Part shown: piece by piece, positions 4,081 to 54,444 of the stretch | Layout: the number at the start of each line of letters is the position of its first letter | Position numbering within the stretch: the first letter of the stretch is position 1 | Source: Nitrospirota bacterium | GTDB taxonomy: Bacteria; Nitrospirota; UBA9217 | Assembly (NCBI GenBank): GCA_029858565.1 | Contig: JAOUEV010000016.1 | Span: 1 to 55,840 of the forward strand | Reading direction: 5' to 3' | DNA: 55,840 bases | Program-made: the position numbers and the translations under genes | The notes under the pieces: model-generated | Told to the model about the DNA's origin: nothing | What the model saw: the letters and a program-made list of their open reading frames with translations, nothing else | Databases searched by the model: none

Positions 4081-4247
4081 TTTCACTGCCGAATTGAACC
4101 ACGGAGTCACAGAGAGAAGCAAAACCCCAGGACTAGTTCTTAAAGATCAGACCAGCATCGGGTTTGATGTTGTCGTGCTTCGCAGCTTCGTATGAGGATA
4201 GGAGTTGACGTTGCCGTCCTCTGCGTCTCAGTGCCTCTGTGGTGAAA
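4081..4247. repeat. Inverted 9-mer-periodic intergenic element (ACCACGGAGTCACAGAG ... CTCTGCGTCTCAGTGCCTCTGTGGTGAA)
   Basis: Degenerate inverted arms with ~9-nt periodicity between thiD and rph. Confidence 0.6.
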
Positions 4248-4276
4248 AGGGTTGTCTTTTGATCTTAGGTGTATTC

Positions 4277-5044
4277 TCAGAACTGAAAATACTTCGTCCT
4301 TCCCTTACCCGCCGGTCTCGCCTTCTTCAACATCTTTTCCACAAATTGCTTACCCTTTTCCACAGCCTTTTCCACAGGTAATCCCTGTCCTATGAACAGG
4401 GTTATTGCAGCGGAAAGTACGCAGCCTGTGCCGTGAAAATCGCCTTTTTGACGCTCTGTGGAAAACTCAAGCACCTGTTTTCCGCCGTATAACGTATCCA
4501 CAGCCGGACCGGGCCGGTGGCCGCCCTTGATCAGCACGTACTTCGGCCCCAGGTCAAGAAGTTTACCAGCGGCAAAATCCATGTCCTCGTCGTTCCTGAT
4601 CAAGACACCGGTCAGGACCTCTGCTTCGGGGATGTTCGGGGTGACCAGAAGGGCCAGGGGAAGAAGCTGCTCCTTAAGCGCTTTGATGCCATCAGGCCTG
4701 AGCAGGATCCTGCCCGAGGTCGAGCGAACGATCGGATCCACGACAACGTTGCTGATACCATGCTTTTTGACGCTTTTCGCGACTGCCGCCACGGCCTGCC
4801 TTGTCAGGAGCATTCCCGTCTTGATCGCGTCAGGCCGCATGTCGCTCAACAGGACCTCGATCTGTCGGGTGATCGAGGCCGGAGGCACCGGCTCGGTCCC
4901 CGCGACGCCCCTGCTGTTCTGGAACGTGAGCGCGGCAGGTATGGCCATGCCAAAGGCGCCGAGCGCCTGGAAGGTCTTGAGATCAACCTGGATGCCGGCC
5001 CCGCCTGAAGGGTCTGAGCCGGCAATGGAGAGAAGTTTTATCAT
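4277..5044 (-). CDS. thiD: Hydroxymethylpyrimidine/phosphomethylpyrimidine kinase
   Basis: SIAGSDPSGGAGIQ, IKTGML, VTPNIPEAE, KGGH, HGTGC. Confidence 0.95.
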   Translation of the reverse strand: MIKLLSIAGSDPSGGAGIQVDLKTFQALGAFGMAIPAALTFQNSRGVAGTEPVPPASITRQIEVLLSDMRPDAIKTGMLLTRQAVAAVAKSVKKHGISNVVVDPIVRSTSGRILLRPDGIKALKEQLLPLALLVTPNIPEAEVLTGVLIRNDEDMDFAAGKLLDLGPKYVLIKGGHRPGPAVDTLYGGKQVLEFSTERQKGDFHGTGCVLSAAITLFIGQGLPVEKAVEKGKQFVEKMLKKARPAGKGRTKYFQF

Positions 5045-5958
5045 TCCACTTTCAACTTCATCAGCTGCAGCGGGTCCACTTTCGCGCCCTGCACGCGCGC
5101 GCCCCAGTGCAGGTGCGCGCCGGTCGATCTTCCGGTTGAACCGACCTCGGCGATCACGTCGCCCTTCATCACTGCCTGTCCCGGCCGGACATGGATCTTC
5201 GACAGGTGAAAGAACATGGTATAGATCCCCTGTCCGTGGTCAAGGATCACACTGTTCCCGGAAAAGAACTGTTCGTCAACGAACACCACCACGCCGTCAT
5301 TCGGCGCTTTCACCGGCTCCCCCTCGTCAGCGGTCAGGTCCACGCCGGAGTGGGAATTCTTCGGGATATTATTGATGATCCTGCGCACGCCAAAGGGCGT
5401 CCCGATCTCGTGACCCGGCAGCGGGTCAATGAACTTCCCTTCCCACATCCTGAGGGAATCGACCGGCCAGAGAGCGGCCACCCGTTTCTGCTCCCGCTCA
5501 GCCCGCGCCTCGTTCTCCGGCGAAAGGGTGACCTGGTCCTCGCGCAGCGTGAGCCGCTGAAGGGGGAACCTCTTTTTCCAGATCTTCACATCCCGCGAAA
5601 CGCTCTTGCCGCCGAGATTCATCACCAGGGGATATGATCCGGGCTCAGTGTTCAGATCAATGCCAACGATCGCCTTATAGGCTCCCTTGCTCTCGTTGAA
5701 GTGCAGATGCTTCTTCAGGAACGTCCCTTCCACAGGCCCGGAAGCTCCCTTTACCGTTACGACCGCGATGTCGCCGGGACCCGGCTTCTTCGGAGAAATG
5801 GAAACAACCGGCTTTCCCGCTGGAGCCGCAATAACTGGCAGTGCTGCAATGAGACACAGGATCACAATCAAGACCGGAGTTATTCCCCGCCAATCCGCAC
5901 TCCGCACTCCGCACTTCGCACTTGTCTTATTCCGCACTCCGCACTCCGCACTTCGCAC
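5041..5958 (-). CDS. Secreted M23 family metallopeptidase (start uncertain: GTG at 5958, 5937 or 5907 within the repeat)
   Basis: HSGVD and HLH Zn motifs, GSTGRSTGAHLHW, signal-like hydrophobic segment. Confidence 0.9.
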   Translation of the reverse strand: MRSAECGVRNKTSAKCGVRSADWRGITPVLIVILCLIAALPVIAAPAGKPVVSISPKKPGPGDIAVVTVKGASGPVEGTFLKKHLHFNESKGAYKAIVGIDLNTEPGSYPLVMNLGGKSVSRDVKIWKKRFPLQRLTLREDQVTLSPENEARAEREQKRVAALWPVDSLRMWEGKFIDPLPGHEIGTPFGVRRIINNIPKNSHSGVDLTADEGEPVKAPNDGVVVFVDEQFFSGNSVILDHGQGIYTMFFHLSKIHVRPGQAVMKGDVIAEVGSTGRSTGAHLHWGARVQGAKVDPLQLMKLKVE

Positions 5959-6000
5959 TTGTCTTATTCCGCACTTTCACTTCGCACTTGTCTCATTCCG
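5894..6000. repeat. Tandem repeat of TCCGCAC heptamers arranged as 37-bp units (x2 plus a degenerate third)
   Basis: TCCGCACTCCGCACTCCGCACTTCGCACTTGTCTTAT at 5894-5930 and 5931-5967, shorter copy 5968-5996. Confidence 0.95.
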
Positions 6001-6002
6001 TA

Positions 6003-7289
6003 TTATTTTTTCTTGAGGTACTGGCTCACGCCCTTCATGGAGCAGAACTCGCCGCACATGGTACAGACATCGGAGTCCGTGGGCATGCGGGATTCGCGCA
6101 GTTTCCGCGCCCGCTCCGGGTCCACCGACAGTTCGATCTGACCTTTCCAGTCCAGCGCTTTCCTGCGCCGGGCCATCTCGCGGTCCCAGTCCATTGCACC
6201 GGGAACGCCCTTGGCAATGTCCGCGGCATGGGCGGCGATGCGCGAGGCGATGACTCCCTGGCGCACGTCCTCCAGGTCCGGCAGACGCAGGTGCTCCGAA
6301 GGCGTGACATAGCACAGGAAATCCGCGCCAGCAGCACCCGCGATCGCCCCGCCGATGGCTGAGGTGATGTGATCGTATCCCGGCGCCACGTCCGTCACCA
6401 GCGGCCCGAGCACGTAGAACGGCGCGCCCTTGCACAACTCTTTCTGGATCTTGATATTCGTCTCCACCTGGTTGATCGGCACATGGCCCGGCCCCTCGAT
6501 CATGACCTGCACGCCGGCTTCCACGGCGATGTCCCGCAGCTCACCGAGCGTGATCAGTTCCTGGATCTGCGCCCGGTCCGTGGCATCTGCCAGGCAGCCC
6601 GGCCGCATGCCGTCGCCCAGGGAGAGGGTCACATCGAACTTCTTGACGATCTCGACCAGCCGGTCGTACTGGCTGTAGAGAGGGTTCTCCTGTTCGTTCA
6701 CAATGATCCATTCCAGATGGAACGCGCCGCCGCGGCTCACCACGTCCATGATGCGGCCCTGATTTTTGAGACGCTCCACGCTCTCCCGCGTGATGCCGCA
6801 ATGCACGGTGATGAAGTCGACGCCTTCGGCGCACTGTTCTTCGATGACCCGGAACAGGACCTCGGGATCCATCTGGACGATCGCCTTGCCGCCTGCCACG
6901 GTCTCCACCGCCGCCTGGTAGATCGGTACCGTGCCGATGGAGACGGTCGACTGCTTCAGGATCTCTTTTCGTATCTCGATGATCGGCCCGCCTGTTGACA
7001 GGTCCATGACCGCGTCAGCGCCTGCGGCTACAGCGGCCTTCAGCTTGGCGATCTCGTCGGCAACGGACATCTGGTCCTTGGATGTGCCGATATTGGCGTT
7101 GATCTTGGTCCTGAGCCCCCTGCCGATCCCGAGCGGAGTGATGGACTTGTGCGCCTTGTTCCGGGTTATAACGATCGTCCCTTTGGCGATCCCCTCAAGG
7201 ATCGTTCCAGGGCTCACGCTCTCGGCCCGCGCCACAGCCTCCATCTCGGGAGTTATATTGCCTTTACGCGCTTCCAGTATCTGTGTCAT
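6003..7289 (-). CDS. thiC: Phosphomethylpyrimidine synthase
   Basis: TKINANIGTS, MDLSTGG, VSRGG, EGPGHVP, C-terminal CTMCGEFC cluster. Confidence 0.98.
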   Translation of the reverse strand: MTQILEARKGNITPEMEAVARAESVSPGTILEGIAKGTIVITRNKAHKSITPLGIGRGLRTKINANIGTSKDQMSVADEIAKLKAAVAAGADAVMDLSTGGPIIEIRKEILKQSTVSIGTVPIYQAAVETVAGGKAIVQMDPEVLFRVIEEQCAEGVDFITVHCGITRESVERLKNQGRIMDVVSRGGAFHLEWIIVNEQENPLYSQYDRLVEIVKKFDVTLSLGDGMRPGCLADATDRAQIQELITLGELRDIAVEAGVQVMIEGPGHVPINQVETNIKIQKELCKGAPFYVLGPLVTDVAPGYDHITSAIGGAIAGAAGADFLCYVTPSEHLRLPDLEDVRQGVIASRIAAHAADIAKGVPGAMDWDREMARRRKALDWKGQIELSVDPERARKLRESRMPTDSDVCTMCGEFCSMKGVSQYLKKK

Positions 7290-7333
7290 CTATGCACCTC
7301 GGTCCTTTCAGGAACTTCCCGCGCTTCATCCGC

Positions 7334-7993
7334 CTATTCCCGGGGAGCGCAGCACTCGCAGATCGCTTTATCAGACATCCGCATTGCTTCCAGAATGTTC
7401 TCAGCCGCCTTTTTAACATCCTCCGCAGCAAGAATGGCAGATATCATTGATATCCCATCAGCTCCGCACCCAATAACCCTGATAATATTCCCACATTTTA
7501 TACCGCCCAACCCAAAAATAGGTATATTTATATTCTTTTTCAACTCTTTTAGCTCACACAACCCCACCGGAGCACCATATTTTTTCTTTGACGGGGTTTC
7601 AAATATAGGTCCGAATGTTACAAAATCAGCCCCATCATCCTGAGCTGTTATTGCCTCACTTTTGTTGTGTGTTGATGCCCCAATCAGCATTCCGCTTCCC
7701 ACTATAGACCTTACTGCATCAACAGGAATGCTGCTATGCCCCACATGAACACCATCAGCATCTACATTAACAGCTACATCAACCCGGTCATTTATGAATA
7801 ACTTCGCCTGAAACTCTTTCGTAAGCTGCCGCATGTCTTTAGCCAGAGCCAGAAGCTCCCGTACAGGCATGTCCTTTTCCCGTAGCTGTATGGCCCTGAC
7901 CCCGCCTTCCAAGGCCAGCCTCACCGCCTCAATAAGAGGCTTTTTTGTCGCATGGCGGTCGGTTATGAGATAGAGACGAAAATCGATAGCCAC
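7334..7993 (-). CDS. thiE: Thiamine-phosphate synthase
   Basis: LYLITDR, IQLREK, INDRVDVA, GASTH, GPIFETPSK, LGGI. Confidence 0.93.
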   Translation of the reverse strand: MAIDFRLYLITDRHATKKPLIEAVRLALEGGVRAIQLREKDMPVRELLALAKDMRQLTKEFQAKLFINDRVDVAVNVDADGVHVGHSSIPVDAVRSIVGSGMLIGASTHNKSEAITAQDDGADFVTFGPIFETPSKKKYGAPVGLCELKELKKNINIPIFGLGGIKCGNIIRVIGCGADGISMISAILAAEDVKKAAENILEAMRMSDKAICECCAPRE

Positions 7994-8089
7994 AGTAACC
8001 TCAGCTCAAGGATTAAGAGGATTAAGAGGATTAAGGATTATCGACCATTACTCCTCTAGCCCTGCTTCATCTGATCCTCTAATCCTTTA

Positions 8090-8869
8090 TTAGTTTCCTA
8101 TCATTCCTTCCACCGGGCTGCTGGCTGTGGCGTAGAGCTTTTTCGGCATCCTTCCCGCCTTGTACGCCAGCCTTCCGGCAAGCACGCCGTATTTCATGGC
8201 CTCTGCCATCTTGATGGGATCCTTGGCAGCCGAGATTGCCGTGTTCAGGAGCACCGCGTCGCAGCCCAGCTCCATGGCGATCGCCACATCGGACGCTGTG
8301 CCGACCCCCGCGTCAACGATCACCGGCACCTTCACGGTCTCCATGATGATCCGGATATTGTAGGGATTCCTGATGCCGAGCCCTGATCCGATCGGCGCTG
8401 CCAGCGGCATGACCGCGGGACAACCAATGTCCACGAGCTTCCTGGCCATGATCGGATCATCGCTCATGTAGGGCAGCACGATCAGGCCTTCCTTGAGCAG
8501 CACCTTCGCTGCTTCAAGAGTAGCCTCGTTGTCCGGGAAGAGCGTCTTCTCGTCGCCGATCACTTCGAGCTTCACCAGCTTCGTGATGCCCGCCTCGGCA
8601 GCCAGCATGGCGTACCGTATGGCGTCCTTGGCATTGAAGCACCCTGCCGTGTTCGGAAGGATCTTGTATTTCTTCGGGTCAATGAAGTCCAGCAGGTTCT
8701 CCTTGGACTTGTCGATGATGTTCACGCGCCGAACCGCGACCGTGACAACGTCGGTGCCCGAAGCCTCGATGGCCCGCCTCGTCTCGTCAAAATCCTTGTA
8801 CTTGCCCGTGCCCACCCAGAGCCGGGACTGGAACTCTATGCCGCCGATCACCAGCTTATCATTGCTCAT
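8090..8869 (-). CDS. thiG: Thiazole synthase
   Basis: [41 protein letters not shown]. Confidence 0.98.
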
Positions 8870-8912
8870 CGTTCGAAACCTCCAAAATCGTTAAGAGCCG
8901 AAACTACTTTAC

Positions 8913-9050
8913 TCTCGCAAAGCCGCTAAGCCGCAAAGAAAGACGTAGTCCTTTGACGTCCTTGGCGCCTTTGCGTCTTGGCGCGAGAACGCAGTTGCCT
9001 TCATCGCTTGTCCTTGCTTCCCTTCGCGTCCTTCGCGTCTTCGCGGTGAA
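8913..9050. repeat. Inverted 9-mer-periodic elements (TCTCGCAAAGCCGCTAAGCCGCAAAG...CTTGGCGCCTTTGCGTCTTGGCGCGAGA, plus a CTTCGCGTC arm)
   Basis: Same family as 13583, 25618, 46163 and 48160. Confidence 0.85.
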
Positions 9051-9055
9051 CGCCG

Positions 9056-9382
9056 TTATTTATTCCTTTTCTTCTTCGTCTTCTTCTCCACCCCGCCCCG
9101 CCCATGGACCTGGATGTAGCAGTTATAGGATGTCAGCGTCTTGCCGCTCTCGCGGTCCGTGCTGCGCTTGTACACCACCTGGAGCCTGGTCTCTTCATTC
9201 TCGCATGCCAGCAGGTCCTTGAGCCGCGACAGCACGCTGTCCACGAAGGTTTTGCTGCCGGTGATCCTGATGCCGTCCTCGGCGTAGGTGCTGCCCTCAT
9301 GGGTGTATCTGACAGGCTTGGGTGCCAGTTTCTGGTTCGCTCTCAGCTTTGCCCAATGCTTCAGGAACGGTTCCTTTTCCAT
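9056..9382 (-). CDS. Hypothetical basic protein inside the thi operon
   Basis: 108-aa ORF, AGGAGGG RBS, host-like codon usage, co-oriented between thiS and thiG. Confidence 0.75.
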   Translation of the reverse strand: MEKEPFLKHWAKLRANQKLAPKPVRYTHEGSTYAEDGIRITGSKTFVDSVLSRLKDLLACENEETRLQVVYKRSTDRESGKTLTSYNCYIQVHGRGGVEKKTKKKRNK

Positions 9383-9470
9383 GGTTCCCTCCTAAAAAAT
9401 AGAGCGATAAGAGATTACGTGATCAGGTGACAAGCGACGAACGACGATGGCCTTTGTTTTTACTCCGCAC

Positions 9471-9698
9471 TCAGCACTTCGCACTCCACACTTCCAAGTC
9501 GCCCCCTCCCATGAACTGCACCACCTCCACCCGGTCGTTCTCCTTGACCAGGACTTCGCCGTAAGTGGCCTTGCGTACGATCTCCTCGTTGATCTCCACT
9601 GCCACACGCTCAGGCTTGATCTCCAGGTGCTGCAGAAGCCCGGAAACGGTCAGACCGTCGGGAACGTCTCTTTTTTCACCGTTCAAGTGTATGTTCAT
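9471..9698 (-). CDS. thiS: Sulfur carrier protein ThiS with a 9-aa C-terminal extension
   Basis: LNGE...VAVEINEEIV...DRVEVVQFMGGG followed by DLEVWSAKC. Confidence 0.93.
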   Translation of the reverse strand: MNIHLNGEKRDVPDGLTVSGLLQHLEIKPERVAVEINEEIVRKATYGEVLVKENDRVEVVQFMGGGDLEVWSAKC

Positions 9699-9878
9699 GA
9701 TTTTCTAACCGCTTCCACTGACATTCGACAGGATCACAGAATAACGATCCGATCTCAAGCGTATAAATCCTGTTGGTCCTGTCGCCTGGGAGCGCCTACT
9801 TTTGGTATCCTGTCAAAAAAGATCCTCTGATTTTCTCCGCGCCTCTGCGTCTCCGCGCGAGAACCGATTTTATGAGAC

Positions 9879-9910
9879 CAAAAAAGCCGCATCCCGAATA
9901 GGATGCGGCT
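9879..9910 (-). terminator. Intrinsic terminator of the TPP riboswitch expression platform
   Basis: AGCCGCATCC-TATTCG-GGATGCGGCT followed by a T tract on the minus strand. Confidence 0.9.
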
Positions 9911-9937
9911 CGAAAGGTGTCATTCCCTCGAATTTCT

Positions 9938-10024
9938 CGCCTTCCCTACGCCGGAACTACCCGGATCAGGTTCCAAGGGTCGCCCTTTTGGAAGGGCTCT
10001 CAGCCATGCGGCTCCCCCGGCTCT
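9938..10024 (-). ncRNA. TPP riboswitch (THI element)
   Basis: Minus strand GGGGGAGCC...GGCTGAGAG...GACCCTTGGAACCTGATCCGGGTAGTTCCGGCGTAGGGAAG upstream of thiS. Confidence 0.97.
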
Positions 10025-10032
10025 GTTTCAAC

Positions 10033-10061
10033 AAAATACAGCAGGTTCCGGGTAAAGTCAA
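10033..10061 (-). promoter_or_regulatory. Sigma70 promoter of the thi operon
   Basis: TTGACT-N17-TATTTT just upstream of the riboswitch. Confidence 0.7.
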
Positions 10062-10219
10062 CGGCTAATCCGACCGGATCAGGCAAGCTCAAAGGGTAAA
10101 TATGACCAAAATGACCAACCTGTTTCATTCTTGACCCCCTCAAAACCGTCCTGTAGAATAAGCATAATAAATATACGATCTTCAAGCCTGTTGCTTTGAT
10201 CATTTTAGCGTGCTAAATT

Positions 10220-10456
10220 ATGAGCGTCACCTTCGAGATCATTGGAGAGATCGAACAGGTCGAGATCATCGCAGCCGGCTCAAGCATCCGAGTACTGCCG
10301 TATATCCAGAAGGTCTACGGTCCGGGCCGTTGGCGGAAGCTTAAAGGCGTAGCCGCGATCAGACTCCCGAATGGCATGATCCGGCGCGTGGAACTTCATT
10401 GGTATGAAGCCCATGGTATCGGCAGGAAGGACTTCAAGATCAAGCGGTACTTGTAG
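10220..10456 (+). CDS. Small basic protein, putative toxin (WRKLKG...ELHWYEAHGIG)
   Basis: 78-aa ORF forming a tight bicistron with the next gene. Confidence 0.75.
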   Translation: MSVTFEIIGEIEQVEIIAAGSSIRVLPYIQKVYGPGRWRKLKGVAAIRLPNGMIRRVELHWYEAHGIGRKDFKIKRYL

Positions 10457-10467
10457 AAAGGATTTCT

Positions 10468-10683
10468 ATGAAAAAAAAATACGCGCTCTGCATCGACAAT
10501 AAAGGCAATGAATCATCGCTCATCCCGAGAAAGATCTACGAGATCCTGCCGGATGACCAGGCAGCCCAGGATGATTTTGTACGGCTGATCGACGAAAGCG
10601 GGGAAGATTACCTTCACCACAAGAGTCATTTCGTATTTGTCGAATTTCCCGAGGAGGTGGAACGAGTACTGCTCGCAGCGTAA
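10468..10683 (+). CDS. Small acidic protein, putative antitoxin/immunity protein (RLIDESGEDYL)
   Basis: 71-aa ORF, AAAGGA RBS, 11 bp after the upstream gene. Confidence 0.75.
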   Translation: MKKKYALCIDNKGNESSLIPRKIYEILPDDQAAQDDFVRLIDESGEDYLHHKSHFVFVEFPEEVERVLLAA

Positions 10684-10859
10684 TTCCGTTGATGCTGCCC
10701 CGATGAGGAAGCAGACAGATCAAGAAACCCGCCCCTCCCCCGCGGCATCCCGCTAAACACGCTCACGGCAGGCCTCTCCGTCCTGCCTTTTTTGCGTTAT
10801 TATCCATCAGGACGATGTTTCCTTCTTGATTTTTCACATGATTTATACTATTTTTAATC

Positions 10860-11153
10860 ATGGACAAATTAACGACCATAAATTTACTCAAGACAAATTT
10901 AAACTATATTCAGGTCCACTTTGGCGTTAATAAGCTTCTGCTTTTTGGTTCTGTGGTCCATGGTACCGCTAAAGAAGGAAGTGATGTGGATATTCTTGTC
11001 GATTTCAGCGGCCAGCCGGACTTTGACCGTTTTATGGACCTCAAGTTCTTCCTGGAAGACCTCTTGAAAACAAAGGTCGATCTGGTCACCCGCGACGCCT
11101 TGCGACAGGGAATGCGACCGTCAATAGAACGAGAGGCGCTCAATGTCGCGTGA
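10860..11153 (+). CDS. Minimal nucleotidyltransferase (MNT) antitoxin
   Basis: LFGSVVHG...SDVDILV...KVDLVT. Confidence 0.92.
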   Translation: MDKLTTINLLKTNLNYIQVHFGVNKLLLFGSVVHGTAKEGSDVDILVDFSGQPDFDRFMDLKFFLEDLLKTKVDLVTRDALRQGMRPSIEREALNVA

Positions 11154-11490
11154 CTGGGCCCTTTATCTTGAGGACATTCTGATTTCCTGCCGGAAGATCC
11201 AGCAATACACGCGCGGAATGGACCCTGTGCAATTTCAGGCTGATGGGAAGACCTATGATGCTGTTCTTCGCAACCTGGAGATCATCGGTGAAGCCGCAAA
11301 GAACATTCCCTTCCCTGTCCAGGCATTGATACCGGAGATTGAATGGCGCAAGCCTGCCGGCCTGCGCGATATGATCGCACACGCCTATTTCGGGATTGAC
11401 AATAATATTCTTTGAGATGTGATACGAAATAAAGTACCTGAACTGCAACAAGCAGTAGAAGCTTTCCAGAAACGTCGAAAACAGGCATAG
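11143..11490 (+). pseudogene. DUF86/HEPN toxin with a premature TGA at 11413-11415
   Basis: AVLRNLEIIGEAAK...LRDMIAHAYFGID; NNIL*DVIRNKVPEL continues in frame to TAG 11490; TGA sits where a Trp (TGG) is expected. Confidence 0.85.
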
Positions 11491-11511
11491 AAGTTGGCAA
11501 TCTTGAACATA

Positions 11512-12396
11512 ATGCGCATCAGATACCTGACAAAATGGATCACTCCCCTCCTCCTGCTTTTCCTTTCCGCCGCATGCAGCGACGAGGTTTCCCGTGTCGG
11601 GTCCTCGACGATCCGCGCCAGGGACCTTGCGCGCCGCGTAAGCGTTACGGAGATCTACTACCCCGGGAGCGGAAAGAACTACGTCGCGCTCTCCCAGCTC
11701 ATAAAGGGAAACCTGTCGATCGAGATGCTGCGCTCCCTTGGCCGTACTGTTGACGACAGTGTCCTGGAAAAAGAAGCGCAGCGGATCGACCAGAACACCA
11801 AGGCGCCGGAGATGCTGAAAAGGATCAAGGACGTCTACAGGTCGGACCGCAAGGCGTATCTGCGCTCCTTTGTGGCTTTGGTATACGCGGAACGGGTCCT
11901 CTATTCCGAGGTATTCCTGAAATCACCGGACGCCCAGGCAACAGAGCGGAAACAAGCGGAATCCCTGCTGCAGCAGGCTTCCCCGTCCCCCTCGTCGTTC
12001 ATGCAAACGGCACGGAAGCAGGGCCTTTCCGCAGAGCAGTTCCGGGTCTCGCTCAAATATGGCGTTGTCCCGATCGAGCACACGCCGCTTGCCACCCCGG
12101 CTCCCCACGAGGCTGATCTCGAACATGCGGACCGGCTGCACCACCTGCTGGAAACAACCAAGCCAGGCGCGATCTATCCAAAGGTGATCGAATGGCAGGA
12201 GAATTTCCAGGTGGTCCGCCTTCTCAGGAGGACGGGAAAGGACCTGATCATCGAGTCCGCGGCCGTGGCAAAGCGGAGTTATGACGAATGGTTCTGGGAG
12301 AAGGCATCGAAAGTACCTGTGAGGATCACAAACATCGCGCTGAAATCCGAACTGCTCAAGGAAGTATCCTGGGCATCCCGCCTGAAACTGGACTGA
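11512..12396 (+). CDS. Hypothetical lipoprotein, possibly SurA/PrsA chaperone-like
   Basis: Lipobox LSAAC and a helical body; similarity to foldases is weak. Confidence 0.65.
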   Translation: MRIRYLTKWITPLLLLFLSAACSDEVSRVGSSTIRARDLARRVSVTEIYYPGSGKNYVALSQLIKGNLSIEMLRSLGRTVDDSVLEKEAQRIDQNTKAPEMLKRIKDVYRSDRKAYLRSFVALVYAERVLYSEVFLKSPDAQATERKQAESLLQQASPSPSSFMQTARKQGLSAEQFRVSLKYGVVPIEHTPLATPAPHEADLEHADRLHHLLETTKPGAIYPKVIEWQENFQVVRLLRRTGKDLIIESAAVAKRSYDEWFWEKASKVPVRITNIALKSELLKEVSWASRLKLD

Positions 12397-12450
12397 TCCA
12401 CTCGCGCAAATACCCCGTATTTACCCATTCTAGATACTTGATTGATAATT

Positions 12451-12490
12451 AAAACAAAACGGGCAGACCTTTCGGCCTGCCCTTCTTTTA
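12451..12490. terminator. Bidirectional intrinsic terminator
   Basis: A-rich run, GGGCAG...CTGCCC hairpin, T-rich run between convergent genes. Confidence 0.7.
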
Positions 12491-12496
12491 CCTCGA

Positions 12497-12858
12497 TCAA
12501 CTAGTGATTTTCTTGTCCTCAAGCAGACCGAGCTTTTCTTTTGTGGCAATGACCAGCACGGACTCCACGGCCTTCTTCTTTCCCTTGGGCGTGCGCACTA
12601 TCATCTTGAGCCCGCTCCTGCGGAGCGCATCGTCGGGGAAGACAAGCTCCCTGCCTGCTGTCAGCGGCTCGGCATGGCACAGGTCATTGGGATAGAGCTT
12701 GCTGATGCGCCATACTGGTCCACGCTGAAGAGATGCAGGTAGCCTTCCTGGTTCGTCGAGGCCTTCACCTTGATCGGTTCATCATGGGTCGCTAAGACCG
12801 GCGTGGAGAATATTGCCATCAGCACGATAGCGACCGCCGTCAGTCTATGAATTACCAT
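12497..12858 (-). pseudogene. Frameshifted DUF4384-like secreted protein
   Basis: Signal peptide + KASTNQEGYLHLFSVDQYG; the adjacent frame continues ISKLYPNDL...ELVFPDD...AVESVLVIATKEKL; 1-nt deletion near 12708. Confidence 0.7.
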
Positions 12859-12942
12859 GATTTCTCCCGGCATCAATGCCTTATTGCTTCTGATTTGATA
12901 CTGACTGCTTACCGCTTATCACTTTAGCCCTTGTTCTGCTCG

Positions 12943-13545
12943 CTAGCCATTAACCAATTTCACCACCGCCATGCCGTCCTCGTAATGATCGATGATGTTC
13001 AGCGCTCCGAAGTTCTGGTCAATACGGAAGAGGTTGAGCGGCGGCAGGCCCAGGGCCTCTGCAAGTATCACCCGGTTCACGCCGCCGTGCAGCAGCATGG
13101 CGATCTCCTGGCCAGGATGGGCCGCCACAATGCGGAGGTACTCGGGCAGGATCCGCTCCCGCACGTCATGCAAACATTCGCCTTCCGGCGGCCGGTAGTT
13201 CAGCAGGTCAGCGCGCCAGGCAGTGTAGTCCTCGGGATAGCGCTCCTTGATCTCCTCTGCGGTCAGACCTTCCCACTTGCCAACGCTCCGCTCCCGAAGC
13301 GTCCTGATGGGTGTGTGCGAAAGACCCAGGCGCTCGGAGATGATCCGGGCGCCCTTGACCGATCGGATCAGGTCGCTCGAGTAGACAGCTGAGACCGGTT
13401 TGCCGTCCAATAGCCCGGCGAGCCGGCGCATCTGCTCAACGCCTTTTTCCGTGATATCCACGTCAATATGGCCGTTGTAGCGTTTTTGTCCGCCATTGGC
13501 CACTTCTCCGTGGCGCATGAGATAGACTCGGGTGAATATCGCCAT
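12943..13545 (-). CDS. cobC: Alpha-ribazole phosphatase (histidine phosphatase family)
   Basis: RHG motif, YSSDL, HGGVNR; downstream of cobU-cobS. Confidence 0.85.
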   Translation of the reverse strand: MAIFTRVYLMRHGEVANGGQKRYNGHIDVDITEKGVEQMRRLAGLLDGKPVSAVYSSDLIRSVKGARIISERLGLSHTPIRTLRERSVGKWEGLTAEEIKERYPEDYTAWRADLLNYRPPEGECLHDVRERILPEYLRIVAAHPGQEIAMLLHGGVNRVILAEALGLPPLNLFRIDQNFGALNIIDHYEDGMAVVKLVNG

Positions 13546-13582
13546 ACAGCACCTGAAATACAGAATAACGTCAACAACCTCG

Positions 13583-13687
13583 TCTCGCGCAAAGGCGCCA
13601 AGCCGCAAAGGAAAGCAATGATCAAATTCTTGCTTCCTGTACTGAATCCTAAGGCCGTTCTTAGCGTCTTTGCGGCTTTGCGCGAGA
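13583..13687. repeat. Inverted 9-mer-periodic element
   Basis: TCTCGCGCAAAGGCGCCAAGCCGCAAAG ... CTTAGCGTCTTTGCGGCTTTGCGCGAGA. Confidence 0.9.
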
Positions 13688-13713
13688 ACGCCTTTTGCTT
13701 TTTTGGTCTGTCC

Positions 13714-14478
13714 TTACCGTTCGCTCAACAGGAACACGAACAAAAGCAGCGTCAGCGCCTCGGTCATCTCGCTCACCGCGCCAATGGAATCACCGGTGAC
13801 GCCGCCTACCTTGCGCGTCACGAACCAGCGCCAGAGCAGGGTGAAACAGACCACGGCAACGGGGATCCCGATCGCAAGAACGATGGTGCGAGGTTCATTG
13901 ATGATGACGAAGGCTGATATGCCGAGCGAAACGACCGACGCGGCGACCAGCCCGCCGGACCGGACATGGCCGACAAAGGCCTTTCCCATGCCTTCGTCGC
14001 GGCCGTAGTCGGACTTGTACATCATCAGCATCTGCGCCCAGCGGCTGAACGCGGGGGCCGTGAGCAATGCAGCGGTCTTGTACTCGGTGAAAAGATTGTT
14101 GAGGCAGGCATATTTTATCAGGAATATGAAAATGATGGCCAGCACGCCGGCGGTGCCGATCCTGCTGTCCCTCATGATCGCGAGCCGGGACTCATGATCA
14201 TGGCCGCCCATAATGCCGTCAACGCTGTCCGCGAGGCCGTCCACATGAAGCGCGCGCGTCAGCATGACCGACGCCAGCAGGAGGAAGATGTTGCCGATCG
14301 TGTCCGGGAACAGCCAGAGCAGCGCCTTGTCCGCCTGCACCAGGATAAGGCCGATCAGAAAGCCGATAAAGGGAAAGTAGACCATGGAGCGCGCGAGATC
14401 GTTCTCCGTGGTCTCATGGTCTTTCCTGACCGTGATGACCGTCAGGAACTGCAGCGCTGTGATGAAGTTTCTGAACAT
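13714..14478 (-). CDS. cobS: Adenosylcobinamide-GDP ribazoletransferase
   Basis: ALHVDGLADSVDG, IMRDSRIG, GGVTGDSIGA. Confidence 0.95.
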   Translation of the reverse strand: MFRNFITALQFLTVITVRKDHETTENDLARSMVYFPFIGFLIGLILVQADKALLWLFPDTIGNIFLLLASVMLTRALHVDGLADSVDGIMGGHDHESRLAIMRDSRIGTAGVLAIIFIFLIKYACLNNLFTEYKTAALLTAPAFSRWAQMLMMYKSDYGRDEGMGKAFVGHVRSGGLVAASVVSLGISAFVIINEPRTIVLAIGIPVAVVCFTLLWRWFVTRKVGGVTGDSIGAVSEMTEALTLLLFVFLLSER

Positions 14479-14611
14479 AGGGTTGTCCTGTGGTACCTGC
14501 TAGTCTCTTGTCCCGTGCTTTTGCTCGCTTATTACTTACCACTCATAGCCCTTCTTTTGTTTCCTATCCCTGGTTCTTAATTTTGCCCCTGACCCCTTAC
14601 GGCTTGCGGCT

Positions 14612-15130
14612 TTATTTAATTTTCACCGGCAGTCCCGCTGCGACAAAATAGGCTTCGTCCGCAGCAGCAGCGACCCGCTGGTTCATTATGCCCGCGAGGT
14701 CCCGGAACCTCCGGACAAGCGCGTTGTCCGGAACGATACCGAGGCCCACCTCGTTCGAGACCACCAGGAGCGTGCCGTCATGGGACCTGAGCGCGGCGGC
14801 AAGTTCGTCGATCGATTCCCGCACCTCATCGTCCTTCGATCTCCGCGCCATGACATTGCTGAGCCAGAGCGTAAGGCAGTCCAGCAGCACCACGCTGTAA
14901 CGGCCCGCAAGCTTCCCTACCAGTTCGGCGATGGCCAGCGGCTCTTCAAAGGTGTCCCAGGCGCCCCCGCGTCGCTTGCGATGATGTTCGATCCGCTCCA
15001 CCATCTCGGCGTCCAGCGCCTGCGCGGTTGCCAGATAGGCCCGTTTACCGGTTATCTCTCCCGCGAGCTTCTCGGCAAAGGCCGATTTTCCCGACCGTGC
15101 GCCGCCGGTGATAAATATAAGTTTCGACAT
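14612..15130 (-). CDS. cobU: Bifunctional adenosylcobinamide kinase/guanylyltransferase
   Basis: ITGGARSGKS, LLDCLTLWLSN, VSNEVGLGIVP. Confidence 0.95.
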   Translation of the reverse strand: MSKLIFITGGARSGKSAFAEKLAGEITGKRAYLATAQALDAEMVERIEHHRKRRGGAWDTFEEPLAIAELVGKLAGRYSVVLLDCLTLWLSNVMARRSKDDEVRESIDELAAALRSHDGTLLVVSNEVGLGIVPDNALVRRFRDLAGIMNQRVAAAADEAYFVAAGLPVKIK

Positions 15131-15167
15131 TCGAGAAATCTGGCAGCCCTGCCGATAGAAACGATCG

Positions 15168-15252
15168 TTCACACGAAGGCACAAAGGCACGAAGAAGATC
15201 GGATCAGATCGGGTTATGCCCTCCCTTTGTGGCTTCGTGGCTTTGTGTGAGA
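15168..15252. repeat. Inverted 9-mer-periodic element (CACGAAG subtype)
   Basis: TCACACGAAGGCACAAAGGCACGAAG ... CTTTGTGGCTTCGTGGCTTTGTGTGAGA. Confidence 0.85.
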
Positions 15253-15277
15253 AATGGTTATTGGCAGTTGCTTAGGT

Positions 15278-15317
15278 AAAAAAACCCTGCGGGAGCATTT
15301 ACTCCTGCAGGGATTTC
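15278..15317 (-). terminator. tRNA terminator
   Basis: CCCTGCAGGAG/CTCCCGCAGGG hairpin followed by a T run on the minus strand. Confidence 0.8.
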
Positions 15318-15328
15318 CTAGAGAGTTA

Positions 15329-15403
<75 letters not shown>

Positions 15404-15415
15404 TTTTCATGGGCT

Positions 15416-15444
15416 ATTATAATGATAGCCCCGTGCACTGTCAA
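15416..15444 (-). promoter_or_regulatory. Consensus sigma70 promoter of tRNA-Gly
   Basis: TTGACA-N17-TATAAT. Confidence 0.9.
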
Positions 15445-15459
15445 TCAAATTTCCGGAAC

Positions 15460-15945: not shown

Positions 15946-16044
15946 TGTTTTGCAAAGCTCCTTGTGACACGTTGAAACTATTCCGGCGGCGCCCTGAGAC
16001 GGGAGCCGCCGGTCGATGAACGTCAGGGAAGTACCGTCAAGGGA

Positions 16045-16365
16045 TCAAGCCAGCAGCGCGTCGACCTTCGACTTGAGCTGGGACTTGGGCACCGCGCCCA
16101 CGATCTGGTCCACGGTCTGGCCGTTCTTGAAGAACATGAGCGTCGGAATGCCCATGATCCGGTATTTGCCAGCGATATCGGGATTCTCGTCGGTGTTGAG
16201 CTTCAGCACCTTGATCTTGCCCGCGTATTCCTTCGAGATCTCGTCAACGATCGGCGCCACCATCCTGCAGGGGCCGCACCACACCGCCCAGAAGTCCACC
16301 AGCACCAATCCCTGGGCTTTCAGCACTTCCTGGTCCCACGTTGCACTCGTTACTGCGTCTGCCAT
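16045..16365 (-). CDS. trxA: Thioredoxin
   Basis: [15 protein letters not shown]. Confidence 0.97.
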
Positions 16366-16389
16366 GCCATCCTCCTTAGGAACCTGATC

Positions 16390-16590: not shown

Positions 16591-16606
16591 AGGACAACCG
16601 TGCTGG

Positions 16607-43139: not shown

Positions 43140-43223
43140 GTCGACACAAAGCTCACGAAGATAATCGTGAATCATCTTTCTTCGTGCCTCATCGTGGTCT
43201 GTGACCATCGTGGCTTCGTGAGA
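43140..43223. repeat. Degenerate 9-mer-periodic element
   Basis: ACACAAAGCTCACGAAG ... TTCGTGCC...ATCGTGGCTTCGTGAGA. Confidence 0.6.
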
Positions 43224-43295
43224 GATAGCTTTTGGTTCACTGGCCTGAGGCTTGGCACTTTTTAATGGCCTCCAAATAGAAACCGATACGAGAAG

Positions 43296-46162: not shown

Positions 46163-46412
46163 TCTCGCGCAGAGCCGCAGAGCTCGCAGAGAATGACGTA
46201 CATTCAACACCAACTGTGTTGTCATTCCCGCGAAGCCGGGTATGACGGCAAATCGCCCATGCGTGCTGCCTTCGTGGCTTCGTGACTTCGTGTGAGTAAG
46301 AGCTTTTGCTCTTAGGCTCACCCCCTGGTCCGGATCTGCCTCTCGCTGTGCTTGTGTAGCAACTTGGTTGCTTGCGTCATTTTCCCTTTGCATCTTCACG
46401 ACTTTGCGCGCC
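46163..46412. repeat. Nested repeat cluster: 9-mer arms around a CGTC hairpin (46221-46246) and a CACGAAG arm (46270-46296)
   Basis: TCTCGCGCAGAGCCGCAGAGCTCGCAGAG at 46163; opposite arm CTTTGCATCTTCACGACTTTGCGCG lies inside the leuA 3' end. Confidence 0.7.
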
Positions 46413-48159: not shown

Positions 48160-48304
48160 TCTCGCGCAAAGCCGCAAAGGCGCTAAGAAGACCTGTTATT
48201 AAGCAATCGCCGCTAAAGAAGTTAAATTCTTCGATCCATGATGATCTCTAAGTTAATTTCAATAGCATTGGCCTTTCTTTGCGACTTGGCGGCTTTGCGC
48301 GAGA
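48160..48304. repeat. Inverted 9-mer-periodic element
   Basis: TCTCGCGCAAAGCCGCAAAGGCGCTAAG ... CTTTGCGACTTGGCGGCTTTGCGCGAGA. Confidence 0.9.
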
Positions 48305-49301: not shown

Positions 49302-49459
49302 GAGCTTTGTGTCCCAATTAATGATTTTTCTCCGCTCAATGCCGCTGAAACAGGCAGGAGAAGGTCCTTTTTCAACCACATAATGCACAGAAGGCTGCGA
49401 GGGAACATATCTGCGTTCTTGTGCTTTTTGTGGCTAAACCTTGATTATCTGGAGCCTGA

Positions 49460-51177: not shown

Positions 51178-51852
51178 ATGCCATCACTGTTAGAAAGATT
51201 GTTCGGGAAGAGGTCCAGGATACAGCTGGATCACGACAGGATCTGGAAGACCCAGACCCTGAAGCTGAACGGCATCATGGCCCACGCGGCATGGCTCGAC
51301 CGGCATGCCACGCGTGTTCTGATGGTCACGCATTTCATCGACACGTTCCGCACCCTTGAAGCCCTCTTCCACTCCCGCGCTCTTCCCTATACACCCATGA
51401 TGACCGGCAGCAGCGCCGTCCAGCTGCGCGACCTGCAGAATTACCGGCCCGGTCATGTGCTGCTGGCCCTTTCCGATGCTCTTCCCGATATTCCGAAGGA
51501 CCAGGCGAAGCGCGTTGCCGAATGCGGGTTCGACATCTGCATTCTTGTGGCGGAACACCATCCGGTACCTGCCGGGGAAAAAGTGATCGATGAGTTCGGC
51601 GAGAAACTTCCCTGCACCGTCCGCTTGTGCTATCACGAGGCTTTGGACGCAGCGCTGCTAAAGCAGTTCAGCGGCGACCTGATCGGCAATGCCTTGTCCT
51701 TACTGAAAGTTCCGGACACTGAGGCCATCACCCACGCCAGCATCGACCGCGCCATCCGCCAGGCGCAAAAAAAGATCTCCCGGCGTACGAAGACCAATCA
51801 CGCCGCCGATTCCGCGGACCAGTGGTTCAGAAACAACATGCCGCGGGATTGA
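51178..51852 (+). CDS. Stand-alone degenerate SecA NBD2-like protein
   Basis: DRIWKTQTLKL...VLMVT...AEHHP...ALDAALLKQF...EAITHASIDRAIRQAQKKI recalls SecA DLVY...VLVGT...TERHE...[19 protein letters not shown]. Confidence 0.65.
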   Translation: MPSLLERLFGKRSRIQLDHDRIWKTQTLKLNGIMAHAAWLDRHATRVLMVTHFIDTFRTLEALFHSRALPYTPMMTGSSAVQLRDLQNYRPGHVLLALSDALPDIPKDQAKRVAECGFDICILVAEHHPVPAGEKVIDEFGEKLPCTVRLCYHEALDAALLKQFSGDLIGNALSLLKVPDTEAITHASIDRAIRQAQKKISRRTKTNHAADSADQWFRNNMPRD

Positions 51853-51855
51853 GAA

Positions 51856-51950
51856 GAAGCGATAAGCGATAAGCTATAAGTTGTAAGCTTTAAGCAAGCT
51901 TACTACTTACTGCTTTACTGCTTACCACTTACCGCTTATTACTTACCACT
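51856..51950. repeat. Inverted heptamer arrays (TAAGCGA-type / TTACTGC-TTACCAC-type)
   Basis: 7-nt periodic runs facing each other between convergent genes. Confidence 0.8.
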
Positions 51951-53182: not shown

Positions 53183-53280
53183 GTTGGCCCCCCGTTCCCC
53201 GCGTTATCCTGCTGTCAAATAACTAGCATAAAATCAGCTCAATGTCAAAAATCAGCGGGACAGGAGCGGGACGAATCCTT

Positions 53281-53309
53281 TTGACACCCGGGCACAATGG
53301 CTTTATAAT
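53281..53309 (+). promoter_or_regulatory. Consensus sigma70 promoter of gpsA
   Basis: TTGACA-N17-TATAAT, 8 nt before ATG 53318. Confidence 0.9.
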
Positions 53310-53317
53310 CGATGTCT

Positions 53318-54319
53318 ATGACTGATTCTGTTGCTGTGATCGGCGCCGGAGCATGGGGTACGGCCCTGGCGCTCGTGCTCGCGGACAAGGGTGTTCCCAC
53401 GGCCCTCTGGATGTACGAAAAGGACCTGGCCGAGGAGACCGGCCGGACCCGCGAGAACCGCGTGTATCTGCCCGGGTTCCCGCTTCCGGCCTCAATTTCC
53501 GTGACGTCATCGCTGGAAGAGGCTGTCAAGGGCCGTCCTTTTGTGCTTTCCGTAGTGCCATCCCATACGGTCCGGCCGGTCTCAAAGCAGTTCGCGCCCT
53601 TTCTGGCTCCGGGCGCGATCATCATCAATGCTTCCAAGGGCATTGAGATAGAAACGCTCAGTCCCCTGGCCGAGGTGTTCAAGGACACCCTTCCAGAGGA
53701 ATATCATGACCGGCTCTGTTTTCTCTCCGGACCGAGCTTTGCCAAGGAAGTGGCGAAGAAAATGCCGACCACCGTGGCACTGGCCTGCGCGGACCCGGCA
53801 ACAGGAAAACGGGCACAGCAGCTCATGAGCGCTCCCTATTTCCGCGTGTACACCAACAATGACGTGATCGGCGTGGAACTGGGCGGATCGATCAAGAACG
53901 TGATCGCCATCGCGGCCGGCGTGCTCGAAGGCCTGGGCTTCGGCCACAACACCATGGCAGGGCTGATCACCCGGGGACTGGCGGAGATGTCCCGCCTGGG
54001 CGTTGCCATGGGAGCGGACCACCGTACCTTCGCCGGCCTCGCGGGAATGGGCGATCTGGTGCTCACCTGCACGGGAGACCTTTCCCGGAACCGCACGCTC
54101 GGTGTGCGGCTCGGCAAGGGCGAAAAGTTCGATGATATCATGAAAGGCCTGAAGACCGTTGCCGAGGGTGTGAAGACCGCCAAAGCTGCCCGGGAACTCG
54201 CGAGAAAGCAAGGCGTGGACATGCCGGTCGTCGAAGAGGTCTACCGCATCATCTATGAAGGCAAGGACCCCCGGCTCGCGCTCAAGGACCTGATGAGCAG
54301 GGAGCTGAAGAACGAATGA
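53318..54319 (+). CDS. gpsA: NAD(P)H-dependent glycerol-3-phosphate dehydrogenase
   Basis: IGAGAWGTALA, SKGIE, LSGPSFA, KNVIAIAAG, GDLVLTC, SRN. Confidence 0.97.
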   Translation: MTDSVAVIGAGAWGTALALVLADKGVPTALWMYEKDLAEETGRTRENRVYLPGFPLPASISVTSSLEEAVKGRPFVLSVVPSHTVRPVSKQFAPFLAPGAIIINASKGIEIETLSPLAEVFKDTLPEEYHDRLCFLSGPSFAKEVAKKMPTTVALACADPATGKRAQQLMSAPYFRVYTNNDVIGVELGGSIKNVIAIAAGVLEGLGFGHNTMAGLITRGLAEMSRLGVAMGADHRTFAGLAGMGDLVLTCTGDLSRNRTLGVRLGKGEKFDDIMKGLKTVAEGVKTAKAARELARKQGVDMPVVEEVYRIIYEGKDPRLALKDLMSRELKNE

Positions 54320-54444
54320 TCCGAATGCGGAATGAAAGGACCTGTAGCAGGTAGCCGGTAGCAAGTAGCCAGGAAAGACGAATGCTCGTTCTCGCGATGC
54401 ATTGCTCATGACTTCGTGTCTTCGTGGTAACTAGAGGTTTTATC

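Follow-up and report, generated by a model that had tools for sequence, protein, structure and literature searches.

The stretch analysed here, contig JAOUEV010000016.1 of the Nitrospirota assembly GCA_029858565.1 (the window below, meaning all of its 55,840 nucleotides (nt)), carries about 20 intergenic repeat elements built of short tandem words, every one of them gene-less. Elsewhere in the same genome and in its relatives, repeats of this construction form cassettes in which two inverted word arms enclose one small promoter-less gene: either a GxxExxY nuclease gene, with arms of CRCNRAG-type words spaced at 8-11 nt, or a gene of the S23p four-helix-bundle family known from the intervening sequence (IVS) of 23S rRNA, with arms of heptamers. 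On balance, we lean towards regarding the window elements as gene-less members of such IVS-like, word-armed selfish cassettes, whose arms would be read by the cassette's own protein. Genome G000, to which the window belongs as contig C19, has 3.92 Mb in 144 contigs and 57% G+C, and its ThiG is 95% identical to that of an uncultured Nitrospirota and 79% identical to that of Nitrospira. The family comparison covered 61 genomes, in which 36 PDDEXK_3 and 34 23S_rRNA_IVP (IVP below) loci were sampled.

An arm comprises 2-4 tandem 7-nt words with 0-3 free bases between them, giving a period of 7, 8 or 10, and two such arms stand inverted around a spacer. The four main elements of the window, which an original prediction made from the letters alone had placed at 8913, 13583, 25618 and 48160, were found there (Table 1); each has TCTCGCG and three CGCNAAGN words, a spacer of 20-89 nt and then the reverse complement, and a blind inverted-repeat scan recovered three of the four. 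Sibling subtypes with other words were likewise present at the places listed for them, and include solo arms, a hybrid and a degenerate hairpin. The 9-nt periodicity ascribed to the whole population did not hold up, as the words recur at 8 nt (CGCAAAGN, CACGAAGN), 10 nt (CACGGATGNA) or 7 nt, with a period of 9 found only at 8005-8039. Automatic flagging marked 16 of the 36 window gaps of at least 40 nt, and three further gaps were recognized by eye. The heptamer arrays of Table 1 and the solo arm at 9020-9050 had not been noticed earlier, nor had the second partner gene family, the four-helix-bundle proteins with heptamer arms, and its IVS parallel. No element matches an Rfam family.

Genome-wide counts set these repeats apart from chance. 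With a criterion of 13 of 16 self-matches, applied alike to the genome and to a Markov shuffle, there are 154 arrays of period 8 as against 15 in the shuffle and 285 of period 7 as against 10. Period-8 arrays are mostly intergenic (134 of 152), whereas those of period 9 mostly lie in coding sequence as codon repeats (108 of 130). An inverted partner of at least 70% identity within 700 nt accompanies 179 of 596 arrays and none of 300 random 26-mers taken as control. Of the 120 paired elements in the genome, 55 have a period of 7, 53 of 8 and 7 of 10, and the other 5, with a period of 9, are spurious; the median spacer is 36 nt. Nested elements exist (C62:112031 and C89:105208), and 245 of the 1905 gaps of at least 60 nt (13%) hold at least one array. 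Arms with at least two words fall into the classes CGCNAAG (83), CACNAAG (42), CACNGAG (35), CGCNGAG (28) and CACGGAT (23), next to GCGGATT (57), GCGGAGT (52), GACGAG (56) and GGATTA (16). CGCNAAG, CACNGAG, CGCNGAG, CACGGAT, GCGGAGT and GACGAG have one gene-bearing copy each beside 23-83 arms per class, an excess of gene-less copies like that of repetitive extragenic palindromes (REPs), the extreme being one gene-bearing cassette for 83 CGCNAAG arms.

The genome encodes 7 PDDEXK_3 proteins (PF13366, equivalent to TIGR04256, GxxExxY) and 5 strong matches to IVP (PF05635, equivalent to TIGR02436, four-helix bundle), and inspection by eye shows inverted word arms around 10 of these 12 partner genes. 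The original prediction had it that such arms often flank GxxExxY PD-(D/E)XK nuclease genes, and this holds: inverted arms bracket six of the seven PDDEXK_3 genes here, the seventh standing between two complete small hairpins, and 35 of the 36 genes sampled in the family. One PDDEXK_3 cassette of this genome, at C142:57083-57433, has the CGCAAAG arms of the window's main family. The arms of the 35 family genes have a period of 8-11 in 34 cases and a scored period of 6 in one, never 7, and in 27 of the 35 they contain at least two CRCNRA[GT] or ACAGGAT words. Around IVP genes, inverted arms occur at 28 of the 34 loci, with a period of 7 in 24 of the 28 and CRCNRA[GT]/ACAGGAT words in none of the 28. 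Arm type thus follows gene family, and therefore the CRC-type classes of the window are arms of the nuclease type and its heptamer arrays are of the four-helix-bundle type. Two layouts are of a different kind: at G000:C100:32600-33390 (L004) a PDDEXK_3 gene lies between two complete small CACGAAG hairpins instead of within one arm pair, and G009:C117 resembles it in having two hairpins, the gene and then a right arm.

The cassette genes keep a strict orientation. All 12 in this genome are in sense, as are all 55 cassettes found between co-directional flanks (the 25 IVP cassettes included), and the cassette neighbours are on the same strand in 122 instances and on the opposite strand in 5. Since they lie in sense between co-directional genes, the cassettes would be read through as part of the host operon, and their genes look promoter-less. 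Across the 61 genomes, the number of CRC-type three-word arms rises with that of PDDEXK_3 genes (Spearman 0.69), from a median of 1 arm in the 13 genomes without such a gene to 43.5 in the 48 with one; yet G013, G048, G061 and G071 have PDDEXK_3 and no more than 4 arms.

Comparison of cassettes between genomes shows that gene and arms are one heritable unit, which moves between sites and can take over a site from a different cassette. The sharing of arm words increases with protein identity for both the nuclease (Spearman 0.26; 1 of 1000 permutations as high) and IVP (0.46; 0 of 1000); the open reading frames (ORFs) of a few cassettes were picked in an antisense frame, which adds noise to this correlation and does not create the signal. 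Arm 6-mers are common to 75% (nuclease) and 50% (IVP) of the pairs with 60-80% identical proteins and are rarely shared below 50% identity. Of 56 cassette pairs with proteins at least 60% identical, 35 have unrelated flanks. A replacement is seen at C142:57083, where G000 has CGCAAAG arms and G001, of the same genus, CACGAAG arms, their proteins being 54% identical; G009 has CACGAAG arms there and a protein 79% identical to that of G001, and the G000 protein is 86% identical to that of a G064 cassette with CGCCAAG/CGCAAAG arms. To judge from these identities, the site has exchanged one cassette for another, with the arms following the gene. Inversion between the arms was also considered and rejected, orientation being kept in 20 of 21 syntenic cassette pairs, with the sole exception having just one flank in common.

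Occupancy of the gaps changes between relatives as well. The site C142:9750 is gene-bearing in G000, G001 and G003 and empty in G007, where the stop and start codons overlap; in G009 it holds a heptamer array and a mini-palindrome, ACCAGAGCTCTGCGGT, that resembles the two outermost words joined. Mini-palindromes of two outermost words are seen at L184 (G009:C45) and L093 (the gap downstream of thiG), with the sequences ACCAGAG.CTCTGCGGT and ACCGCAGAG.CTTTGCGGT; other genomes have full elements at these places, and the palindromes are possibly scars of their collapse. A comparison of orthologous gaps in relatives, as the original prediction had proposed, yielded both empty and differently occupied ones: the cobS-cobC gap is empty in G009, G007, G017 and G012, and is occupied by a CACGAAT element of period 10 in G003 and by a lone heptamer array in G001. 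The gap between the tRNA gene and cobU is uninformative in this respect, G001 having an ordinary 230-aa gene there. Around thiG in 78 Nitrospirota, arrays occur in 19 downstream gaps (26 different units) and in 10 of 76 upstream ones (11 different units), and five relatives whose ThiG proteins are 94-95% identical each carry something different there. Elements fixed in position, with no empty alleles and no link to a nuclease gene, are therefore not what the gaps and gene neighbourhoods of relatives contain. When contigs from two DNA runs were compared with window positions 1-20000, the matches were other element copies with other spacers, none of which bridged the presence or absence of an element. 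Among RNA runs, none matched the window at positions 7000-16000.

The GxxExxY protein has the marks of a nuclease. All 22 sequences compared have D67, E77, K79 and the GxGxxExxY motif unchanged, and the AlphaFold model (pLDDT 95.4) has a restriction-endonuclease-like fold. Its Foldseek/VIA matches are restriction-endonuclease-like proteins, Cas4, Hjc and tRNA-splicing endonuclease, with Z of about 5-8 (maximum 8.1) and the restriction-endonuclease-like proteins the best at Z 7-8, which is likeness at the level of fold and does not separate DNA-junction from RNA substrates; sequence searches for a solved relative of the protein found none. Catalytic residues and modelled fold together identify the product as a PD-(D/E)XK nuclease with predicted activity. 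In a library of 1.8 billion proteins the family has 41,508 clusters at 50% identity (E at most 0.001), and many of its best hits (proteins P0001-P0020) are about 270 aa long and contain the complete domain twice in tandem, a hint that the single-domain form may work as a dimer. The literature lists PDDEXK_3, in the part available to us, as "unknown, multiple transfers", and in our literature search no publication connected word arms with GxxExxY genes or treated this class of cassette.

The arms themselves are conserved as words. Among the period-8 pairs (47/49, collected without a motif filter), six of the eight word phases are complementary between the arms in 89-98%, whereas phase 8, the inter-word base, pairs in 0.43 as against 0.42 by chance and phase 4 in 0.55 as against 0.39. 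The purines that define the subfamilies CGCAAAG, CACGAAG, CACGGAG and CGCAGAG covary between the arms (1.00 and 0.97, where chance would give 0.58 and 0.69). In gene-bearing cassettes, the word positions pair in 0.94-1.00 and the inter-word bases in 0.54. As the words pair and the bases between them do not, the stem is predicted to be a string of 3-7-bp blocks with 1x1 mismatches, and such a string appears in the predicted folds of the six elements tested (z from -1.6 to -7.0). Conserved words with free inter-word bases fit recognition by a protein. The outer end of the elements is fixed as T(C/T)TCG or ACC; the sequence outside it is rich in A at the 5' flank and in T at the 3' flank, offset from the stem.

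Short elements lie mostly between co-directional genes. This is so for 77 of the 89 with both flanks called, as against 8 with convergent and 4 with divergent neighbours, the baseline for all gaps of at least 80 nt being 1258, 167 and 254 in the same order. The minus-strand thi operon of the window has six occupied gaps. It is led by a thiamine pyrophosphate (TPP) riboswitch (10028-9925, minus strand, 68 bits), directly behind which stands a classic terminator hairpin with a T run (9911-9884), and then come a solo arm and the ACAGGAT hairpin, thiS, heptamer arrays, ORF108, a solo arm and a CGCAAAG hairpin, thiG, the GGATTA hairpin, thiE, thiC, heptamer arrays, an M23 peptidase gene, thiD, the CACAGAG hairpin and RNase PH. 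None of 15 terminator-like sites in 3500-16500 is an element. The elements are not intrinsic terminators and do sit inside operons, as had been proposed. The gap of the 8913 element had been taken for that between thiS and thiG; the gene immediately upstream of thiG is instead an ORF without assigned family. The position of the 13583 element between cobS and a cobC-like phosphatase gene was correctly given. The ORF in question, ORF108 (108 aa, 9056-9382, minus strand), has no Pfam match and lies between repeat arms; in the close relatives L089, L090, L092 and L098, thiG is preceded by a homologous C-terminus, and in other relatives thiS stands directly there.

Table 1. Word-built elements in the window (window coordinates)
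Position	Element	Structure	Location or remark
4097-4243	CACGGAG/CACAGAG-word gene-less hairpin, period 8	left arm AACCACGGAGTCACAGAGAG, right arm ...CTCAGTGCCTCTGTGGT, spacer ~100 nt	thiD-RNase PH gap
5887-5964	two adjacent heptamer arrays	CCGCACT words, same orientation	thiC-M23 peptidase gap
8005-8091	GGATTA-word element	left arm period 9 (GGATTAAGA x3), right arm period 8	thiG-thiE gap
8913-8988	CGCNAAG-word hairpin, period 8	spacer 20-22 nt	immediately upstream of thiG
9020-9050	solo arm	CTTCGCG x3 (= CGCGAAG words), without partner arm	
9424-9492	two heptamer arrays	GACGAGN-type and CCGCACT-type	thiS-ORF108 gap
9728-9783	ACAGGAT-word hairpin		between TPP riboswitch terminator and thiS
9834-9862	solo right arm	CTCCGCG/CTCTGCG x3, end = CGCGAGA (CGCGGAG words)	
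12901-12924	heptamer array		
13583-13687	CGCNAAG-word hairpin		between cobS and cobC-like phosphatase gene
14586-14612	heptamer array		
15166-15253	CACNAAG-word hairpin (CACGAAG), period 8		between tRNA 15332-15403 and cobU
25617-25706	CGCNAAG-word hairpin		between CGGC-domain gene and GyrI-like gene
26388-26423	heptamer array		
37353-37387; 37391-37425	heptamer array, then solo arm	AAGAATT array; period-10 CACGGATGNA arm	
43141-43225	complex CACGAAG/CATCGTG element	degenerate arms	
46163-46295	hybrid	left arm CGCAGAG words, right arm CTTCGTG words (= CACGAAG)	EamA gene-leuA gap
48160-48304	CGCNAAG-word hairpin	spacer 85-89 nt	z = -7.0, strongest fold among six tested
49372-49436	degenerate hairpin	CACAGAA/CACAAAA words	
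51852-51945	heptamer-armed pair	AAGCGAT words versus GCTTACC	convergent gap
54340-54374; 54410-54432	heptamer array and two-word arm	GTAGCNG array; CTTCGTG arm	

One further segment of the window, 31098-33405, may be foreign DNA, the long ORFs 31090-32244 and 32365-33369 failing the codon-usage gene caller, unlike their neighbours.

How such cassettes might spread can be sketched as follows. The cassette protein would read its own words, and a nuclease that is likely dimeric would fit two inverted arms. It might cut at or near the arms, and by recombination a copy of the cassette could then enter a new gap, or a gene-less hairpin whose arms match. Once transcribed, the arms would pair as a beaded stem and the host operon would tolerate the insert, as happens with RNase III on the IVS of 23S rRNA. 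The gene-less hairpins would then be either collapsed cassettes or non-autonomous partners. By analogy, a role at the level of RNA would be favoured by the strict sense orientation, the operon context, the published RNase III-cut IVS and the RNase III gene that this genome encodes. Its single 23S gene (C115:4773-7773) has no array of period 7 to period 10, and hence no IVS there.

Several observations weigh against the assignment of the window elements to selfish cassettes. The original prediction had supposed that gene-less elements are copies mobilised by a nuclease, for which we found no trace: the 40 elements examined for target-site duplication have none, the direct repeats shared by their flanks following the null distribution; the spacers of the 40 CRC-type elements share nothing beyond 6 trivial BLAST hits; and an hmmsearch of six-frame translations of the 44 spacers of at least 60 nt returned 4 intact genes only, the other 40 being without nuclease or IVP remnant. 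The elements had also been called near-identical, which is true of the arms and, as those unrelated spacers imply, the gene-less elements are not recent copies of a master element. The classes GCGGATT (57 arms) and GGATTA (16 arms) lack a gene-bearing copy in the assembly, which in its 144 contigs may have dropped identical repeats. Arms occur without a PDDEXK_3 match in G018 (16 arms, 91% complete) and G054 (97 arms, 65% complete), and the family genomes are kin and hence non-independent, which makes the co-occurrence of arms and genes descriptive. Part of the co-divergence of gene and arms is plain vertical descent, as 21 of the 56 similar pairs are syntenic. The inter-word bases pair at the level of chance (0.43 against 0.42, and 0.54 in gene-bearing cassettes), which leaves the stem interrupted every 4-8 nt, and the fold z-scores are uneven. 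A bias towards an RNA strand is absent, G.U-compatible mismatches being 96 in sense and 95 in antisense in gene-less elements and 81 versus 89 and 85 versus 69 in cassettes. Finally, the sole near-identical multi-copy family that could be inspected, in G009, is an ordinary miniature inverted-repeat transposable element (MITE) with its own terminal repeats and a 6-bp duplication, carrying the CRC hairpin as cargo, and near-identical copies in G008 are contained in a larger repeat. The G009 MITE (L170-L178, 9 near-identical copies) is about 150 nt long, has terminal repeats GATGAAGTCGTAAAAAC... and an A/T-rich target duplication, carries its CGCTGAG/CTCCGTG word hairpin in the middle and is sometimes inserted in tandem.

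Other explanations have to be set against this evidence. Transcribed stems of REPs and bacterial interspersed mosaic elements affect mRNA processing and stability, and the present elements could be host-useful RNA hairpins that set mRNA processing, stability or cistron-specific decay, with the small genes as passengers. The depletion of divergent gaps (4 of 89, against 254 of 1679 at baseline) and enrichment of co-directional ones agree with such a role, as do the occupation of six gaps in one riboswitch-led operon, folds that beat shuffles in all six tests, and the presence of RNase III, the enzyme that cuts the published IVS according to the accessible part of its description (PMC4990558); the same placement bias is reported, in the portion available, for the heptamers of Xanthomonas and Nostoc (PMC4692102). 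We nevertheless consider it unlikely: relatives with 95% identical ThiG have other elements or none in the same gaps, against a conserved role per gap; sense-strand G.U bias is missing and inter-word bases are unpaired; and the dependence of word class on the enclosed gene family is left unexplained. The free, unpaired inter-word bases and the strand-symmetric pairing constraints are what an array read by a protein should have, and binding sites for a host global regulator or a nucleoid protein of the integration host factor (IHF)/HU type would account for them. Aklujkar 2009 (PMC2700814) read the same layout in this way, and the class 2 word in the accessible text, TCTCCGTS, matches CACGGAGA. 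This reading is still less probable, because about a dozen unrelated word classes coexist in one genome, the occupant of a given gap changes from one close relative to the next, arms move together with the gene inside them and depend on its family, and where the nuclease gene is absent the median number of arms per genome is 1; neither our analysis nor the accessible text of that paper identifies a host regulator.

The remaining two alternatives have very little to recommend them. Arrays arising by replication slippage, with inverted pairs produced by chance or by local inversion-duplication, would be functionless by-products; heptamer arrays are indeed common in many bacteria, as stated in the part of PMC4679880 available, and the window has solo arms and variable word numbers. 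The statistics of pairing and gene association largely refute this, notably the inverted partners of 179 of 596 arrays against 0 of 300 controls and the covariation of the subfamily purines, and neither the fixed terminal TCTCG/ACC motifs nor the gene-family specificity of the arms would be explained, so that slippage is highly improbable. We give the least credence of all to ordinary MITEs or REPs moved by a Y1 enzyme of the RAYT (REP-associated tyrosine transposase) or IS200 type or by a DDE transposase. The genome does have 12 Y1_Tnp matches, and the 9 near-identical G009 copies that carry a CRC hairpin are those of a true MITE; inspection of 11 Y1-type genes, however, showed word-built arms beside none of them, and the 40 elements examined show neither target duplication nor shared internal sequence.

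If gene and arms are indeed a selfish unit residing in operon transcripts, annotators can drop the regulatory-site label for such arms, and the origin of rRNA intervening sequences would be explained. The GxxExxY and four-helix-bundle proteins are two very large families of tiny proteins without assigned function, and the separate reports on word-built repeats, which took them for "regulator sites" (Geobacter), "quadruplex repeats" (Xanthomonas, Nostoc) and IVS stems (Coxiella), were never joined. A small PD-(D/E)XK nuclease that reads sequence through modular recognition of words would become a testable enzyme, and with 13% of the longer gaps affected the elements matter for operon structure and for breaks in metagenome assemblies. 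A bolder extension, which we put forward tentatively and with clearly less confidence than the cassette reading itself, is that GxxExxY proteins are word-reading nucleases and so a third pair of repeat and mobiliser beside REP/RAYT and IS200/IS605, in which a dimer would bind the two inverted arrays and cut, recombination would copy gene and arms together into further intercistronic gaps, and gene-less hairpins would be landing pads; the four-helix-bundle/heptamer cassettes would be a parallel lineage, and the 23S IVS a copy that landed in rRNA. The GxxExxY family, with more than 40,000 protein clusters, would in that case gain a function and the IVS an origin.

Among known systems, MITEs are likewise short, gene-less, intergenic, inverted at their ends and related to gene-bearing elements, but the elements described here are without target-site duplication, conserved internal sequence or a transposase partner. 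REPs are abundant intergenic palindromes, and the RAYT gene, encoding a small Y1 (HUH, IS200/IS605-like) transposase, is flanked by inverted copies of them. The original prediction had drawn this analogy, which stands as regards architecture, namely a small enzyme gene between inverted repeat copies and many gene-less copies per gene-bearing one. It fails as regards the enzyme, the enclosed product being a PD-(D/E)XK nuclease or a non-enzymatic helical bundle and no Y1/HUH transposase, and the arms are tandem words instead of a single imperfect palindrome. Moreover, the 11 RAYT-like genes inspected in this genome carry other, non-periodic inverted repeats. In the window, between two large genes at 19733-20342, the palindrome GGGCGGGTTT(C/A)AAACCCGCCC occurs three times (19739, 20061 and 20304; 0.01 expected by chance) beside an ORF (19781-20350) in which just the final half of a Y1_Tnp/IS200-like domain is left; this seems to be the remnant of a RAYT-type element, whose REP-like hairpins are of its own kind and have no relation to the word arms.

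Heptamer simple-sequence repeats are familiar as the short tandemly repeated repetitive sequences of cyanobacteria. The GGGNATC heptamers of Xanthomonas and Nostoc are preferred between aligned ORFs and rare between divergent ones (Rehm 2015, PMC4692102), and TAACTGA heptamers are described from the Beggiatoaceae (PMC4679880). As far as the accessible parts of these papers go, such repeats are like ours in having 7-nt units in 2-26 copies, in being intergenic and transcribed and in preferring aligned ORFs; they differ in being direct-repeat arrays, read as G-quadruplex or regulatory sequences, and not inverted pairs around a gene, with no link to GxxExxY or four-helix-bundle genes made there. 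Closer in layout are classes 1-3 of the "putative global regulator binding sites" of Geobacter metallireducens (Aklujkar 2009, PMC2700814), which the available text describes as opposite-strand pairs of 3-5 tandem octa- or heptanucleotides at variable distance, intergenic and also inside operons (proB-proA), in dozens per genome, and read as IHF/HU sites. The same arrangement of opposite-strand sites at variable distance, with 3-5 tandem 7-8-nt units, is present here, although that class is descriptive and defines no mechanism; its class 2 word is the complement of the CACGGAGA word, an equivalence that rests on the legends. Geobacter belongs to another phylum, and the accessible text reports no link to a small gene.

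The closest counterpart is the 23S IVS. That of Coxiella burnetii, in helix 45, holds an S23p ORF and has three tandem GACAGAT heptamers in its 5' stem. The stem has 28 bp, interrupted by one mismatch and one bulge, and RNase III cleaves it at the first of the heptamers; the authors of that study, who also cite the Leptospira IVS, call the IVS a selfish element of unknown origin (PMC4990558, accessible part). The elements described here differ in lying in intercistronic gaps of mRNA operons and not in rRNA and in being mostly gene-less, and RNase III cleavage of them is putative; the CRC classes of the window, moreover, belong with the GxxExxY nuclease, at 8-11-nt spacing and with stems interrupted between words. 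To the extent that the IVS literature is accessible, the two nonetheless share a small promoter-less sense gene of the S23p four-helix-bundle family within a host transcript, inverted repeats that form the stem base and tandem heptamers in the stem, GACAGAT-like heptamers flanking the IVP genes of the relatives L082 and L085. The window copies are all gene-less; in the family genomes, inverted arms bracket 28 of 34 IVP genes, and the IVP cassettes between co-directional flanks are in sense in 25 of 25 cases.

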